Below, in pieces: positions 1 to 5,529 of a DNA stretch of 21,400 bases. This DNA comes from Chlamydiia bacterium. GTDB lineage: Bacteria > Chlamydiota > Chlamydiia > Chlamydiales > 2-12-FULL-49-11. Under the pieces are notes generated by a model. That model saw only the letters and a program-made list of their open reading frames with translations, ran no database searches and had not been told where the DNA came from. Numbering within the stretch: the stretch's first letter is position 1; each line of letters starts with the position of its first letter. The DNA lies in assembly GCA_044359535.1 (NCBI GenBank), contig JBIKLZ010000016.1, positions 1 through 21,400 on the forward strand, given 5' to 3'. Made by a program: the position numbers and the translations under genes.

Positions 1-675
1 TATGAACCGATGTCTATTACAACTCTTCTCCCTTTGCTTGAAGAAAAACCCTTTTCCCTCTTTTTTGGAAACAGTTTATCGATTCGTTATGCAGATAATT
101 TCCTATTTCCGAAAAAAGCCACATCTCAATTTTACGGCAATCGTGGAGTAAGTGGCATAGATGGAAATCTTTCAACGGCTCTTGGTATTTGTTTTAAAAT
201 ACAAGCTCCTGTTGTAGCTCTTGTCGGCGATTGCACCTTTCTTCATGATATTGGCGCTTTAACTTTGATGCATCAAAATAAGATCCCCCTTATTATTGTT
301 GTGATTAACAACAATGGAGGGGGAATTTTTGATTTTCTATCCTACAATCAAGAAAAGGATTTTATAAATACTGTGATCTCCCCCCCCACAAATTTAGATA
401 TTGGAAAGATTGCTTCTTGTTTTAATATCCCCTATTGGAAAGCTGAATTTTCAAACGATTACACTAAAATGATCAGTCATCTTTTAGAGGAAAACAGAGG
501 CGGTATCATTGAAATTCCATCCAATAGAGAAGAAAATCTCCTCTTACATCAAATTTTAGACGATTACATTCAAACAAACATAGAAAAACCTAATTTTAAG
601 GAAAAATTATCCCTTTTCTCATTTCAAAAAAAGCCCCTCCCCCCAAAGAGATCTATTGCCTTCACGGATTTTTAG
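1..675 (+). CDS. menD: SEPHCHC synthase MenD, C-terminal part (5' end lies before the window)
   Basis: Frame is open from position 1. MenD/TPP-binding motifs NRGVSGIDG, GDCTFLHD and NNNGGGIF; men gene context. Confidence 0.95.
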   Translation, partial: YEPMSITTLLPLLEEKPFSLFFGNSLSIRYADNFLFPKKATSQFYGNRGVSGIDGNLSTALGICFKIQAPVVALVGDCTFLHDIGALTLMHQNKIPLIIVVINNNGGGIFDFLSYNQEKDFINTVISPPTNLDIGKIASCFNIPYWKAEFSNDYTKMISHLLEENRGGIIEIPSNREENLLLHQILDDYIQTNIEKPNFKEKLSLFSFQKKPLPPKRSIAFTDF

Positions 676-1268
676 GAAACCGTTCCGATTTTGATCCTTT
701 TAAAGCCTCTTTTAAAGTGATTTCAGAACATTTACCTGGCCATGGAAATAGACCCTTTATGCAAAAAAAGGATTTTTTGCAGAGTTTAGCTGATTTACCC
801 CCGAAACATGTTGTTGCCTATTCCATGGGAGGAAGACTTGCATTAGAGGCCCTTCTTTATTATAAAGCCCCCTTTTTATCCCTTACCCTTTTATCGACAA
901 CCACGTTTTGTATAAATATTGAAGAACGGATCAAGAAAGAAAGAGGTTGGATAGAAGCTTTAAAAACTCTCTCTATAAAAGACTTTGTTAAATTGTGGTA
1001 TAGCCAAGAGCTTTTTAACGGCTTTACCCCTCCTTTATCGCGCTTTATTCAAAATAAGGAAAATCTATTGAACATTTTAGAAGAATATTCTATCACTAAG
1101 GGCCCTTGTTTAATAACCAATAGAAAAAAAGGCATCACCTATATTTTTAAAGAAGACGACCCTAAGGGAAAAAATCTTCCTAACACACACTTTGTTAAAG
1201 CTAGAAGCCACGCTATCCACTTAGAATGTCCACAACAAATTATTCAGATCTTGAAAACACGGTATTAA
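633..1268 (+). CDS. menH: SHCHC synthase MenH (alpha/beta hydrolase); true start unresolved, possibly fused to MenD by a -1 frameshift
   Basis: Frame is open from 600 and encodes EIYCLHGFLG at 648-677, upstream of the GTG at 717. Also LPGHG, nucleophile elbow AYSMGGR, WYSQELF, EDDPK and SHAIHLE. There is no ATG/GTG/TTG between TAA 597-599 and the HGFLG motif. Confidence 0.85.
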   Translation, partial: APPPKEIYCLHGFLGNRSDFDPFKASFKVISEHLPGHGNRPFMQKKDFLQSLADLPPKHVVAYSMGGRLALEALLYYKAPFLSLTLLSTTTFCINIEERIKKERGWIEALKTLSIKDFVKLWYSQELFNGFTPPLSRFIQNKENLLNILEEYSITKGPCLITNRKKGITYIFKEDDPKGKNLPNTHFVKARSHAIHLECPQQIIQILKTRY

Positions 1269-1785
1269 TGTATTGTATGTCATCAGAATCAAGTTTTATA
1301 ACTGTCGCAAAATCAACAATTTTTTCGCACACTTGTTTGTTTATTTTACCTATATTTTCTAATTTTAAAATATATTCTTTTACAATATTTGGCTTATCAG
1401 CGTTTTTGGAATCATATTCTTCATAAAAATGACTCAAATGAGTTATAACTGTATTTATTGTCTCTTCTTCTAAAGGTGGTTGCGACGGGTTATTCATTAA
1501 CTCATCAATTGAACAAGGGTTGTGGGCCGTGCTGTTTGTTTCATCTAAAGATTTAGATAGAGGTATTGTTTTTTCAGCCATTTGACGCCCAATTTCTCTC
1601 TCCACCTTTTCGCGAATCTCCATTGAAATAAAAAAGGCAATTCCAATAAGGAGAATATTCACTACTATAGAAGCGATACACAAGGCCACTTTTTTGATTT
1701 TTTCATCTTTTTCTCCCTCTTTAACAAGAAGAGTTGGAGATGTAAAAAATAAGACACCAGGGGGTATAGAGGATGTTATATTCAT
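1240..1785 (-). CDS. Hypothetical protein with one predicted transmembrane helix (possible membrane effector)
   Basis: 181-aa ORF with a Ser/Thr/Pro-rich N-terminus, hydrophobic segment VALCIASIVVNILLIGIAFFISM, and its own promoter-like sequence. It fills the menH-menB gap. Confidence 0.75.
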   Translation of the reverse strand: MNITSSIPPGVLFFTSPTLLVKEGEKDEKIKKVALCIASIVVNILLIGIAFFISMEIREKVEREIGRQMAEKTIPLSKSLDETNSTAHNPCSIDELMNNPSQPPLEEETINTVITHLSHFYEEYDSKNADKPNIVKEYILKLENIGKINKQVCEKIVDFATVIKLDSDDIQYINTVFSRSE

Positions 1786-2741: not shown

Positions 2742-3653
2742 ATGAATGTTCAATTTTTAAAACAAAAAGGATTCTTTGGTTTGATCGTTTATGGAGCAAG
2801 ACCTAAAACTTTGGTTGCCTCTTTTTTTCCTGTGATTTTAGGAATGCTTTTAGCTCGGTTTGATCATCATTACGACATAGTTATCTATCTCTATACCCTT
2901 TTTTCAGCCCTATTTCTTCAAATCGGTACAAATTACGCCAACGATCTATTCGATCATAAAGCTCAAAGGGATACTTCTCATCGACTTGGACCCCCTCGCT
3001 TAGGGGCTTTAGGTCTTTTATCCCAAAAAGAACTTTCAATTCTTACATTTACCTCCTTTTTTATTTCGGCAATTCTTGCTATTCCTTTAATCGTTAAAGG
3101 GGGAATTTTAATTGTATTTCTTCTTCTTCTTGCCCTATTTTTAGGAATTTTTTACTCCTATGGAAGATATTCCCTGGCAAATACAGGTCTTGCCAATATT
3201 GTTGTCTTTATTGTTTTTGGACCATTAGGAACAGCAATTACTTATTACCTTCAATCCCAGAGCTATTCAGCAAATGCTGTTTTCTTTGGATGTTTACCAG
3301 GGGCCCTTTCTTTAATGCTTTTTGCGATGAATAATCTTCGTGACATGCAAGAGGATAAAAAAGGGAATAAAAAAACCCTTGTTGTACGCTTTGGTTTTCT
3401 TTGGGGGAAAATTGAATACATGTTATTTCTTTTTATAGCTCTTGTTATCCCCCCTTTAGGTCTACTATTTTTTAATGCCCCACTCATCACCTTACTTCCT
3501 CTAATTCTCCTCAAACAAGGATTTTCTCTATCTCATGCTGTTTATAAAGCTTTTGATTCTTTAGAAATTGTCCCTTTATTTGAAAAAACGGCAATGTTTA
3601 ATACCCTCTATGCACTTTTAACAATTATTGGGTGGAGAATAGCCACCTTATGA
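2742..3653 (+). CDS. menA: 1,4-dihydroxy-2-naphthoate prenyltransferase
   Basis: ARPKTL, LQIGTNYANDLFD and NNLRDMQEDKKGNKKTLVVRFG; multiple hydrophobic helices. Confidence 0.96.
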   Translation: MNVQFLKQKGFFGLIVYGARPKTLVASFFPVILGMLLARFDHHYDIVIYLYTLFSALFLQIGTNYANDLFDHKAQRDTSHRLGPPRLGALGLLSQKELSILTFTSFFISAILAIPLIVKGGILIVFLLLLALFLGIFYSYGRYSLANTGLANIVVFIVFGPLGTAITYYLQSQSYSANAVFFGCLPGALSLMLFAMNNLRDMQEDKKGNKKTLVVRFGFLWGKIEYMLFLFIALVIPPLGLLFFNAPLITLLPLILLKQGFSLSHAVYKAFDSLEIVPLFEKTAMFNTLYALLTIIGWRIATL

Positions 3654-4474
3654 ACCCTTTTTCTGAAATAGATAGTTTTAAGCTAGAAAACTATACTCTA
3701 AAAAATCGTAAAGGGATCTATCTTCACATAGAAAAAAACAAAAAAAGTGCAATCGGTGAAGTTTCACCCCTCCCAGGACGAAGTATCGAAACCTTAGAAA
3801 TGGCGGTAGATCAACTTGAAGGGGTTAAAAAGAGCTTGTTAGATGGATATTGTGATTTTTTCCCTCTCTATCCTTCTGTCCTTTTTGGTCTAAAGACCGC
3901 TTTATATTCTTTAGATCACATACCCCCTCCTTTTTCTTCAGAAATCACAAGCCTTTTTCTTGAACCTCCACTTGTTGCTCCAAAGGGAAATGTGAAATTA
4001 AAGCTTGGGAATTATGGTATTGAAGAGGCTATAAAATTTTATGAAACCTTTCGCCGAAAAGAAAAAAATATTCGAATTGATTTAGAAAGAAAATGGGAAC
4101 TTTCTAAAACTGTTACGTTTTGCAAAAAGATCGATACCTCTTTGTTATTATACATCGAAGATCCAGTAAAAGAGTATGACGATTTAACCCCATTTTATGA
4201 AGAAACAAAGGTTGCATTTGCCCTCGACATGTTCCTCGCTTTTCATTCTACTGAAGAGATTAAGCTCTTAAAGGGGCTTTACTCAATTATTGTTAAACCC
4301 TCTCTTGTTGGGGGACTTGAAGAATGTCGCGCCCTTCAAGCTGCCTTTTTTCCAATCCCTATCTCTTTAAGTAGCCTTTTTGAAACCTCTATTGGGATTA
4401 ATCACATAAAAATACTTTCTTCAATCCTTTGTGGCAATGATCCTGTGGGGGTCGATACCCTTAAATTTTTATGA
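3650..4474 (+). CDS. menC: o-succinylbenzoate synthase (enolase superfamily)
   Basis: GEVSPLPG, KLK, RID, IEDP, ALD, VKPSLVGG, SSLFETSIG and GVDT. ATG 3650 overlaps the menA stop (ATGA) and is preferred over GTG 3632. Confidence 0.9.
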   Translation: MNPFSEIDSFKLENYTLKNRKGIYLHIEKNKKSAIGEVSPLPGRSIETLEMAVDQLEGVKKSLLDGYCDFFPLYPSVLFGLKTALYSLDHIPPPFSSEITSLFLEPPLVAPKGNVKLKLGNYGIEEAIKFYETFRRKEKNIRIDLERKWELSKTVTFCKKIDTSLLLYIEDPVKEYDDLTPFYEETKVAFALDMFLAFHSTEEIKLLKGLYSIIVKPSLVGGLEECRALQAAFFPIPISLSSLFETSIGINHIKILSSILCGNDPVGVDTLKFL

Positions 4475-5529
4475 CAGCAATCTACATTCGTGATCAAAAA
4501 ATAAGCTATGTGCAGTTACTTCAATGGATTGAAAAAAGAACCGTTGTCGATCCAATTTTTCCAGTGACAAGAACTTTAGATTGTGTCCTTAACATCCTTA
4601 CCTGTTGGATAAAGGGGATCCCATTTTTTCCATACTCCCCCCTTCTATTAAAAAAACCCTCTGTAACCTTTAATCCAGGCTCTGATCTTATTTTACACTC
4701 CTCTGGTTCTTTTCAAATGAAGTATATTCAATTAACTAAAAAAGGATTTATTGAGTCTATCATCAATACCCATAAAGCATTCATCCTCGAAGAAGATGAT
4801 GTGTATTTACTCAACCTTCCCCTCTACCACGTAGCTGGAATAGCTATTCTCCTTAGAGCCTTTTTAAGGGGAGGATCTATTGCTATAGAGCCAAATGACC
4901 CCTCCATTATCACCCATCTTTCAATGGTCCCTTCCCAAACAGAAATTTTAAAGGAGAAAAATCCATTCCCACATCTTAAAGCTCTTTTACTTGGGGGATC
5001 AAAAATCCCAACCGATCTTGCTGATTTTTTGGTAGACAACCACTATCCCTTATACGTTACCTATGGAATGACAGAAACCTATTCCCACGTTTTTGTCGAA
5101 AAATATCAAAAAGGAGAAGGGGTCTTTTTTAGACAGCCCCTTAAAGGGAGAAAGGTTTTTATTAATGACCAAGGGATTCTTTTTGTAAAACTCTTTTGCA
5201 TGAATGAATTTTATAACACAAAGGATCGATTTTCTTTTAAAGAAGGTAAATATCGCTATATCGAAAGAGAGGATGCCATGTTCATTTCCGGAGGGGAAAA
5301 TATCTATCCAGAAGAGATTACACAGGCTCTTTTTAAAATTCCTGGGATCAAAAAGGTAGATATTGAAATCAAAGAGGATCTTAAATGGGGAAATCGCCCT
5401 TTTGTCACCATTTATACAGATAAGCCTACCTCTTTGTCTTCGATAAAAGGCTCATTAGCCCTCTTACTTGAAAAATTTAAAATTCCTAAAGATCATGAAA
5501 TAGCTCTTTACTCTTTAGACCCTTTTTAG
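4471..5529 (+). CDS. menE: o-succinylbenzoate-CoA ligase (compact form)
   Basis: LPLYHVAG, LLGGS, YGMTET, FISGGENIYPEEI and FKIPK; ATGA overlap with menC. Confidence 0.9.
   Translation: MTAIYIRDQKISYVQLLQWIEKRTVVDPIFPVTRTLDCVLNILTCWIKGIPFFPYSPLLLKKPSVTFNPGSDLILHSSGSFQMKYIQLTKKGFIESIINTHKAFILEEDDVYLLNLPLYHVAGIAILLRAFLRGGSIAIEPNDPSIITHLSMVPSQTEILKEKNPFPHLKALLLGGSKIPTDLADFLVDNHYPLYVTYGMTETYSHVFVEKYQKGEGVFFRQPLKGRKVFINDQGILFVKLFCMNEFYNTKDRFSFKEGKYRYIEREDAMFISGGENIYPEEITQALFKIPGIKKVDIEIKEDLKWGNRPFVTIYTDKPTSLSSIKGSLALLLEKFKIPKDHEIALYSLDPF

Follow-up and report, generated by a model that had tools for sequence, protein, structure and literature searches.

The menH gene of a chlamydial men operon overlaps menD in the -1 frame and probably starts at a near-cognate codon, not by frameshifting

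How is menH, a gene of the vitamin K2 pathway, translated in a lake chlamydia when its reading frame offers no usable ATG, GTG or TTG? The question is raised by the first 1,268 nucleotides (nt) of a 21,400-nt stretch of DNA from a Chlamydiia bacterium (GenBank assembly GCA_044359535.1, contig JBIKLZ010000016.1, positions 1 to 21,400 of the forward strand; hereafter the window). Position 1 of the window is the first base of the contig (G000:C18:1), which belongs to a metagenome-assembled genome of 1.21 Mb in 57 contigs, 92.6% complete (G000). The 3' part of menD is overlapped here by the open frame of menH, which lies in frame 3 (-1 relative to menD), is closed at its 5' side by TAA 597-599, opens at position 600 and runs for 222 codons. 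Downstream of this TAA the frame reads GKIIPFLISKKAPPPKEIYCLHGFLG, and its first ATG, GTG or TTG is GTG 717-719. An earlier note on this DNA had proposed that ribosomes shift by -1 at an A_AAA_AAG heptamer in menD and so produce a MenD-MenH fusion; as alternatives it had named a 1-nt error or deletion in a true fusion gene and initiation at ATT or ATC. Judging from sequence comparison, we consider it probable (roughly 0.7) that menH is a separate overlapping gene started at a near-cognate AUC or AUA codon behind its own Shine-Dalgarno (SD) sequence, and not by frameshifting. In the window the likely start codon is ATC 609, at an SD spacing of 6 nt. The elements concerned are the following.

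1..675, + strand: 3' part of menD (last 224 codons), frame 1, its 5' side cut by the contig end; stop codon TAG 673-675
598..602, + strand: SD-like AAGGA within menD (codons K-E), 6 nt before ATC 609
609..611, + strand: proposed near-cognate menH start codon ATC, which matches, or lies 1 codon 5' of, the ATG or TTG of sister genera
609..675, + strand: dual-coding overlap of 67 nt, read in frame 1 as the tail of menD and in frame 3 (-1) as the N-terminus of menH
609..1268, + strand: menH (2-succinyl-6-hydroxy-2,4-cyclohexadiene-1-carboxylate synthase, an alpha/beta hydrolase), frame 3, 219 codons plus stop as proposed
627..633, + strand: A_AAA_AAG heptamer in the menD register (CAA AAA AAG, 625-633), judged incidental
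660..677, + strand: LHGFLG (oxyanion-hole region) of MenH, 5' of GTG 717

The positions previously given for the heptamer, the A7 run (626-632), the C6 run (639-644), AAGGA, ATT 606, ATC 609, GTG 717 and LHGFLG all hold on the sequence.

The frame-3 protein downstream of menD is MenH. A profile of the 70-sequence family matched the solved E. coli MenH chains in the PDB (4myd, 4mxd, 4gdm) with E ~5e-50, and the next non-MenH hydrolase followed at E 5e-22. TIGR03695 was the top NCBIfam match of the product, yet its 79.9 bits lie below the cut-off of 208.55. The catalytic Ser-Asp-His triad (S73, D185, H202) is invariant in the 70 sequences, as are G21, F22, L23 and G24, and the AlphaFold2 model of the protein has a mean predicted local distance difference test score (pLDDT) of 95.5 with alternating strands and helices. 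The upstream gene encodes 2-succinyl-5-enolpyruvyl-6-hydroxy-3-cyclohexene-1-carboxylate (SEPHCHC) synthase, for which Pfam TPP_enzyme_C (E 2.1e-12) and, as top NCBIfam match, TIGR00173 were obtained. The menD stop codon TAG 673-675 is embedded in the F-L-G codons of the MenH motif LHGFLG. As had been pointed out, a start at GTG 717 would remove this motif, to which the invariant residues G21 to G24 belong.

The junction is authentic. A metagenome contig 98.5% identical over window positions 1-1300 (L040) differs by 20 mismatches and no gaps, with identical A7 and C6 runs, and contigs from three further lake-water runs (X4, X5 and X6) span 597-719 with neither differences nor gaps. Since these four independent assemblies show no indel at the junction, an assembly error is excluded. 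The locus was present in 24 lake-water metagenome runs from 23 studies, and no RNA run was among the 24 listed. We extended the comparison to the family by searching 22 genomes, of which 21 gave a match. At all 20 of the clear loci the menH frame is -1 relative to menD, as had been described for the window, and the open frame shared with menD measures 40-112 nt; in the weak twenty-first match (L022) menH lies in the +1 frame. The menD/menH -1 overlap is thus an ancient arrangement.

Canonical start codons are distributed unevenly over these loci. The set for the window's genus (g1) comprised nine genomes and the metagenome contigs L040 and L041, eleven sequences in all, and not one of them has an ATG, GTG or TTG before HGFLG; the statement that menH lacks a canonical start before GTG 717 was therefore correct and applies to the whole genus. 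In a second genus (g2), three of five sequences lack a canonical start and the other two have only a GTG situated 1-4 codons before FLHG. Elsewhere menH starts with ATG (both loci of g3, and L012 of g4) or TTG (g5), the ATG having been relocated into an ATGA overlap in two g4 genomes; the plain ATGA form of the menD/menH overlap is seen in the family members L018 and L020. At a locus from another family of the order (L060, genome G039), the menD TAG likewise falls within the HGFLG codons of menH, the open overlap is 73 nt, and the sole canonical start candidate is a TTG 8 codons before LHGFLG. In g5 (L021, genome G012) the menH frame is open for 516 codons, and MenH may be fused there to a downstream protein.

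These data also bear on the view that menH is truncated and starts at GTG 717 or is a decaying pseudogene, or that the junction is a sequencing error in a true fusion gene. Public gene calls are in line with truncation: those of close relatives are all short (147-186 aa), starting downstream so that P0003-P0019 cover only 60-82% of the MenH query. The downstream canonical starts are not conserved, however, and four of the nine g1 genomes have none within 200 nt, while LHGFLG and the preceding strand are conserved on the 5' side of such starts. All 16 genomes have an intact menH open reading frame (ORF) in which S, D and H are invariant. Against a sequencing error or a 1-nt deletion in a fusion gene, as formerly considered, stand the gap-free agreement of the four assemblies and the -1 offset, which is found in 20 of 20 loci despite differing junction sequences. 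We regard this group of explanations as highly improbable.

Where, then, does menH start? At the aligned start site the g3 loci read gaA-TGt and tcA-TGt, g4 (L012) reads ctA-TGc and g5 reads ccT-TGt; the ATG or TTG of these sister genera is thus made up of the third base of one MenD codon and the initial TG of a Cys codon (nnA-TGy, ccT-TGt). In the two start-less genera a Tyr codon stands at the same place (nnA-TAy), namely ctA-TAc or ttA-TAc in all five g2 sequences and tcA-TAc in six g1 sequences, which is ATA in the menH frame. This ATA aligns with the ATG of L011, L012 and L013 and with the TTG of L021. In the other five g1 sequences the Ser codon does not end in A and the preceding codon does, which places ATC 1 codon further 5'. 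Every g1 sequence thus has exactly one of the two codons, in perfectly complementary distribution (6 + 5 of 11). On a tree of MenD plus MenH, the ATC state arose at least twice within g1. The tree places g1 as sister of g4 at no more than 81/78 support and is compatible with one change of ATG to ATA as well as with two. At the protein level, the N-terminal I-L or I-V so encoded is aligned with the M-L at the beginning of other MenH proteins, and in the 70-sequence alignment I-L-x-x-x-x-x-K of MenH falls on the M-L-x-x-x-x-L-K of many homologues.

As to the SD sequence, AAGGA stands at 6 nt in all five g1 sequences of the ATC type, and AAGGAG at 8 nt in five of the six of the ATA type, the remaining one (L007) having GAGG at 3 nt. 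The genera with an ATG or TTG start have weaker SD sequences (AAGG or AAGGA at 3-10 nt). The 16S tail of the window's genome is canonical (CACCTCCTTT), and SD 4-mers in this genome peak at spacings of 5-7 nt, spacing 6 being found in 63 of 564 genes where about 7 are expected. ATT 606-608, at an SD spacing of 3, is the less likely alternative. The earlier suggestion of ATT or ATC initiation after AAGGA is therefore the one that the comparative evidence backs, with ATC 609 likelier than ATT 606.

If the stretch between the AUC or AUA and the A-run is translated in two frames, signs of dual coding should appear in it. Over the ~15 codons 5' of the proposed start, the menH frame contains one to three stops in every g1 sequence, in four lineages within 0-1 codon of it, while between the start and the A-run (KK site) none of the eleven sequences has a stop. 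With MenD peptide and codon usage taken as fixed, the probability of finding no stop is 0.18-0.77 per lineage, and the product over seven lineages is ~0.005. A codon ending in T before the KK of the A-run, which would create TAA, occurs in 0 of 11 sequences, whereas a T stands before 5 of the 7 KK sites further upstream. Synonymous codon choice in the menD overlap is skewed relative to the rest of the same loci, with TAC:TAT 8:1 vs 87:128 (p = 0.005), TCA:TCT 9:2 vs 75:167 (p = 0.001) and TTC:TTT 8:9 vs 70:244 (p = 0.03). Such a skew would be expected if the stretch served as coding sequence for menH as well. The anatomy of the junction, its conservation and these dual-coding signatures are direct observations.

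Both the open menH frame and the synonymous constraint on menD lie 5' of the A-run, and a shift at the A-run predicts neither these nor the match of the encoded N-terminus to those of MenH homologues. This is one of several points that bear on the proposal of a programmed -1 frameshift yielding free MenD and a MenD-MenH fusion as main or sole source of MenH, which we hold to be decidedly unlikely. Several features made the proposal attractive. A_AAA_AAG is in the correct 0-frame register, and a shift on it would enter the MenH frame immediately ahead of the LHGFLG strand; most g1 members have some in-register AAA_AAR at the junction; tRNA-Lys(UUU) is the only Lys tRNA detected among the 33 tRNAs of the genome, as in E. 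coli; and the substrate of MenH is the product of MenD, with men enzymes described as fused in plant PHYLLO (PMC6189191). Within g1, however, A_AAA_AAG occurs only in the window sequence (L002) and in the 98.5%-identical L040. The other members have G_AAA_AAA (two), A_AAA_AAA, C_AAA_AAA (two), C_AAA_AAG (two) or A_AAA_AAC, and L007 has none of these but only A_AAA_C. The second genus has no A-run at the junction, so that a different shift site would be required. The call for a comparison of relatives thus had a divided outcome, the -1 overlap being conserved and the heptamer not.

Stimulatory elements were also sought. The SD sequence lies 24-26 nt before the heptamer, its end being 24 nt away, which is too far when compared with the 10-14 nt needed for stimulation. 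No downstream stimulatory structure was found: the fold of positions 634-733 is no better than that of shuffled sequences (z = -0.47), and no structure is shared across the eleven g1 sequences (z -2.2 to +0.9). The earlier statement that the site has neither a strong hairpin nor a well-spaced internal SD was accurate. For E. coli, PMC4066793 gives motifs lacking stimulators as shifting at only 2-10 times a background of 0.055%, and describes A_AAA_AAG as avoided in genes. In the window's genome, by comparison, the heptamer is over-represented, with 409 in-frame copies in 759 long ORFs vs 183 +/- 15 in synonymous-codon shuffles, and 441 in a wider ORF set. Two further heptamers are likewise over-represented there against such shuffles (in-frame A_AAA_AAC, 182 vs 118 expected; G_AAA_AAG, 159 vs 94). 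Finally, no in-frame MenD-MenH fusion was found among the 150 best of 1004 matches in a library of 1.84 billion representatives (maximum length 371 aa), and the lack of longer fused MenH homologues among 1195 candidates adds weak evidence in the same direction. The fusion by programmed shift is thus not borne out by comparison, the heptamer being unconserved, without stimulator and abundant, and none of the relatives examined having a fused protein.

The same joining of frames might come about during transcription, if one A were added to the A7 run in some mRNAs. The run is A7 here (626-632) and A7-A8 in three relatives, and one extra A would give a product identical to that of the -1 shift. 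A-runs of 4-8 are, however, below the lengths known to slip appreciably in transcription, and run lengths in g1 vary over just this range (4-8), including A4+A4 in L007 and A5 in L008 and L010. The constraint 5' of the A-run is left unexplained by such slippage as well, and we give it very little credence.

Our proposed explanation is that menH, whose first 22 codons occupy the -1 frame of the menD 3' end, is a separate gene with a ribosome-binding site of its own that drives its translation. AAGGA 598-602, which encodes K-E in MenD, would bring the 30S subunit to AUC 609 as near-cognate start; the codon used by sister species would be AUA, 1 codon further on, behind AAGGAG. The initiator tRNA would decode AUC or AUA as formylmethionine at low efficiency, giving free MenH of ~219 residues. 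The weak start would have derived from an ATG that is still present at the same site in related genera, and the stronger SD would partly make up for it. That AUC or AUA is the codon actually used is what we infer, and the presumed level of expression has the same footing. In E. coli, AUA, AUC and AUU are reported to initiate at 1-2% (0.1-3%) of the AUG level (bioRxiv 10.1101/063800). A low output of MenH may be tolerable because the enzyme is highly proficient and is absent from many bacteria with the men pathway; according to PMC6189191, MenH is dispensable to the extent that many such genomes lack it.

Several points weigh against near-cognate initiation. The SD AAGGAG is also a conserved K-K-E motif of MenD and is found in genera whose menH starts at another place, so that the SD does not count as independent evidence. 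The stop and synonymous-codon statistics count related lineages as independent and rest on few codons. In the AlphaFold2 model the first 14 residues of MenH are coil, with a pLDDT of 72 for residues 1-10, so the structure does not require that these residues be translated. AUA is rarely documented as a bacterial start. Some spontaneous slippage may also occur at A_AAA_AAG, given that only tRNA-Lys(UUU) was detected. A mixed outcome can be imagined, in which free MenH is initiated at AUC or AUA and the in-register A-run is selectively kept, a few ribosomes slipping by -1 to give a MenD-MenH fusion; this we think about as doubtful as the programmed shift itself. If it were true, the fusion would channel the unstable SEPHCHC and be a recoding-based bacterial counterpart of plant PHYLLO.

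A further alternative is that ribosomes ending at menD TAG 673-675 re-initiate backwards at menH with no free 30S/SD step, or that another start, such as ATT 606 or ATT 621, is used. The menD stop lies 1-64 nt 3' of the menH start across the family, as is typical of coupled genes, and both ATT codons are in frame with menH. In g1, though, this distance is 49-64 nt, which is far for back-scanning; the optimally spaced SD favours ordinary SD-led initiation over re-initiation; and ATT 621 is neither conserved nor preceded by an SD. Re-initiation differs from SD-led initiation at AUC or AUA only in how the ribosome arrives, the product being identical. We consider it unlikely.

Is menH an isolated case in this genome? 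We ranked the ORFs of G000 by how many codons precede their first ATG, GTG or TTG and searched the 20 highest-ranking ones with Pfam. The scan recovered a positive control, the +1 site of prfB (GGGAGG TAT CTT TGA C), and four further genes with a conserved domain starting 5' of any ATG, GTG or TTG. These four appear, from their sequences, to start at AUH codons (AUA, AUC or AUU).

G000:C5:78278-79303, + strand: mutY-like gene (L080/L082), no ATG, GTG or TTG before the WF..RDFPWR..SEIMLQQT block
G000:C43:9926-10906, + strand: gene like that of 3-deoxy-D-arabino-heptulosonate 7-phosphate (DAHP) synthase (L067/L107), Pfam domain from residue 22, first ATG at codon 61
G000:C7:11342-12442, + strand: folC-like Mur-ligase gene (L064/L127), no canonical start before I-D-F...GTNGKG
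G000:C35:125104-126042, - strand: phospholipase D (PLD)-like gene (L062/L136, L137-L144), its product with a membrane segment at the N-terminus and two PLDc_2 domains

The mutY-like gene has ATT at codon 4, 6 nt after AAGGAG, at a place where 19 relatives with a complete 5' end have ATG (17) or GTG (2). In the DAHP-synthase-like gene ATT is codon 8 and aligns next to the TTG start of a sister species (TTT-ATT opposite TTG-ATA), and the others have ATG or TTG. In the folC-like gene, at least four of seven g1 members (L128, L130 and L131 were among the loci compared) share an ATC at the I-D-F site, preceded by an SD of the GAGG type, and G006 has ATG. For the PLD-like gene no ATG, GTG or TTG was found within the first 195 codons; its N-terminus is without a canonical start in seven of nine g1 members, while G006 and G001 have GTG, TTG or ATG. 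As to prfB itself (release factor 2; L065, G000:C35 ~82,100-83,246, + strand), the site is a classical programmed +1 site at which the first ORF (MRENIAKDIKIFKEKVSGMGRYL) ends, the PCRF and RF-1 domains continuing in the +1 frame.

A cause for the AUH starts was looked for in the initiator tRNA and in the start of infC, and none was found there. The initiator tRNA is ordinary, its C1 mismatch being normal and the GGG/CCC of its anticodon stem intact, and the infC ORF of G000 opens with ATT-TTG directly after a stop, its start being ambiguous. Together, these cases indicate that start-codon choice may be relaxed in general in this genus and that five or more conserved genes may start at AUH, a reading likelier than fusion by slippage.

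The men operon continues beyond menH. With menD on its 5' side, menH is followed on its 3' side by four further genes.

1909-2739, + strand: menB (Pfam ECH_1)
2742-3653, + strand: menA (Pfam UbiA)
3632-4474, + strand: menC (Pfam MenC_N/MR_MLE_C)
4471-5529, + strand: menE-like gene (Pfam AMP-binding)

Between menH and menB lies an ORF of 181 codons on the - strand (window 1240-1785), which overlaps the 3' end of menH by 29 nt, encodes a hydrophobic segment and has no Pfam or NCBIfam match.

Near-cognate start codons are known from E. coli, where infC and pcnB start with AUU. As in these two, a conserved housekeeping gene would have an AUH start behind an SD, presumably with low expression, and relatives have ATG in the corresponding position. 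In menH, by contrast, the proposed codon is AUC or AUA, belongs to the -1 frame of the preceding gene and is kept across two genera with turnover between adjacent codons; no autoregulation is implied. With dnaX and IS3-family elements, as these are presented in PMC4066793 and PMC5009743, the locus shares the 0-frame heptamer, an open -1 frame after it and tRNA-Lys(UUU) as the only Lys tRNA found. Unlike those sites, the menD junction lacks an SD 10-14 nt upstream as well as a hairpin or pseudoknot downstream, its heptamer is unconserved and abundant genome-wide, and menH has its own SD and start-like codon. The arrangement resembles coupled overlapping operon genes in that menH starts inside menD in the -1 frame, the ATGA form being present in L018 and L020; it departs from ATGA-type overlaps in the 67-nt overlap, in the menD stop inside the HGFLG codons and in the non-canonical start. 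MenD and MenH are also physically linked in plant and algal PHYLLO, whose order is given as MenF-MenD-MenC-MenH in PMC6189191, a source that also implicates Chlamydiales in the origin of algal men genes. PHYLLO differs from menD/menH here in being a true in-frame fusion with another domain order.

Gene callers limited to ATG, GTG and TTG shorten menH by 36-70 codons and lose the oxyanion-hole motif, so that metabolic reconstructions made automatically for uncultured chlamydiae of lakes and sponges may list MenH as broken or absent. Recoding, for its part, cannot be read from an in-register A_AAA_AAG when the genome is AT-rich and Lys-rich. Overlapping gene pairs with a near-cognate start are of a known kind, and menH is a well-conserved new case of them. 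The locus would offer an example of start-codon decay within a dual-coding overlap, from ATG or TTG to ATA and on to a neighbouring ATC, with a strengthened SD compensating. Taken with the four other AUH-start cases, menH points to an unusually frequent tolerance of AUH starts in this genus.

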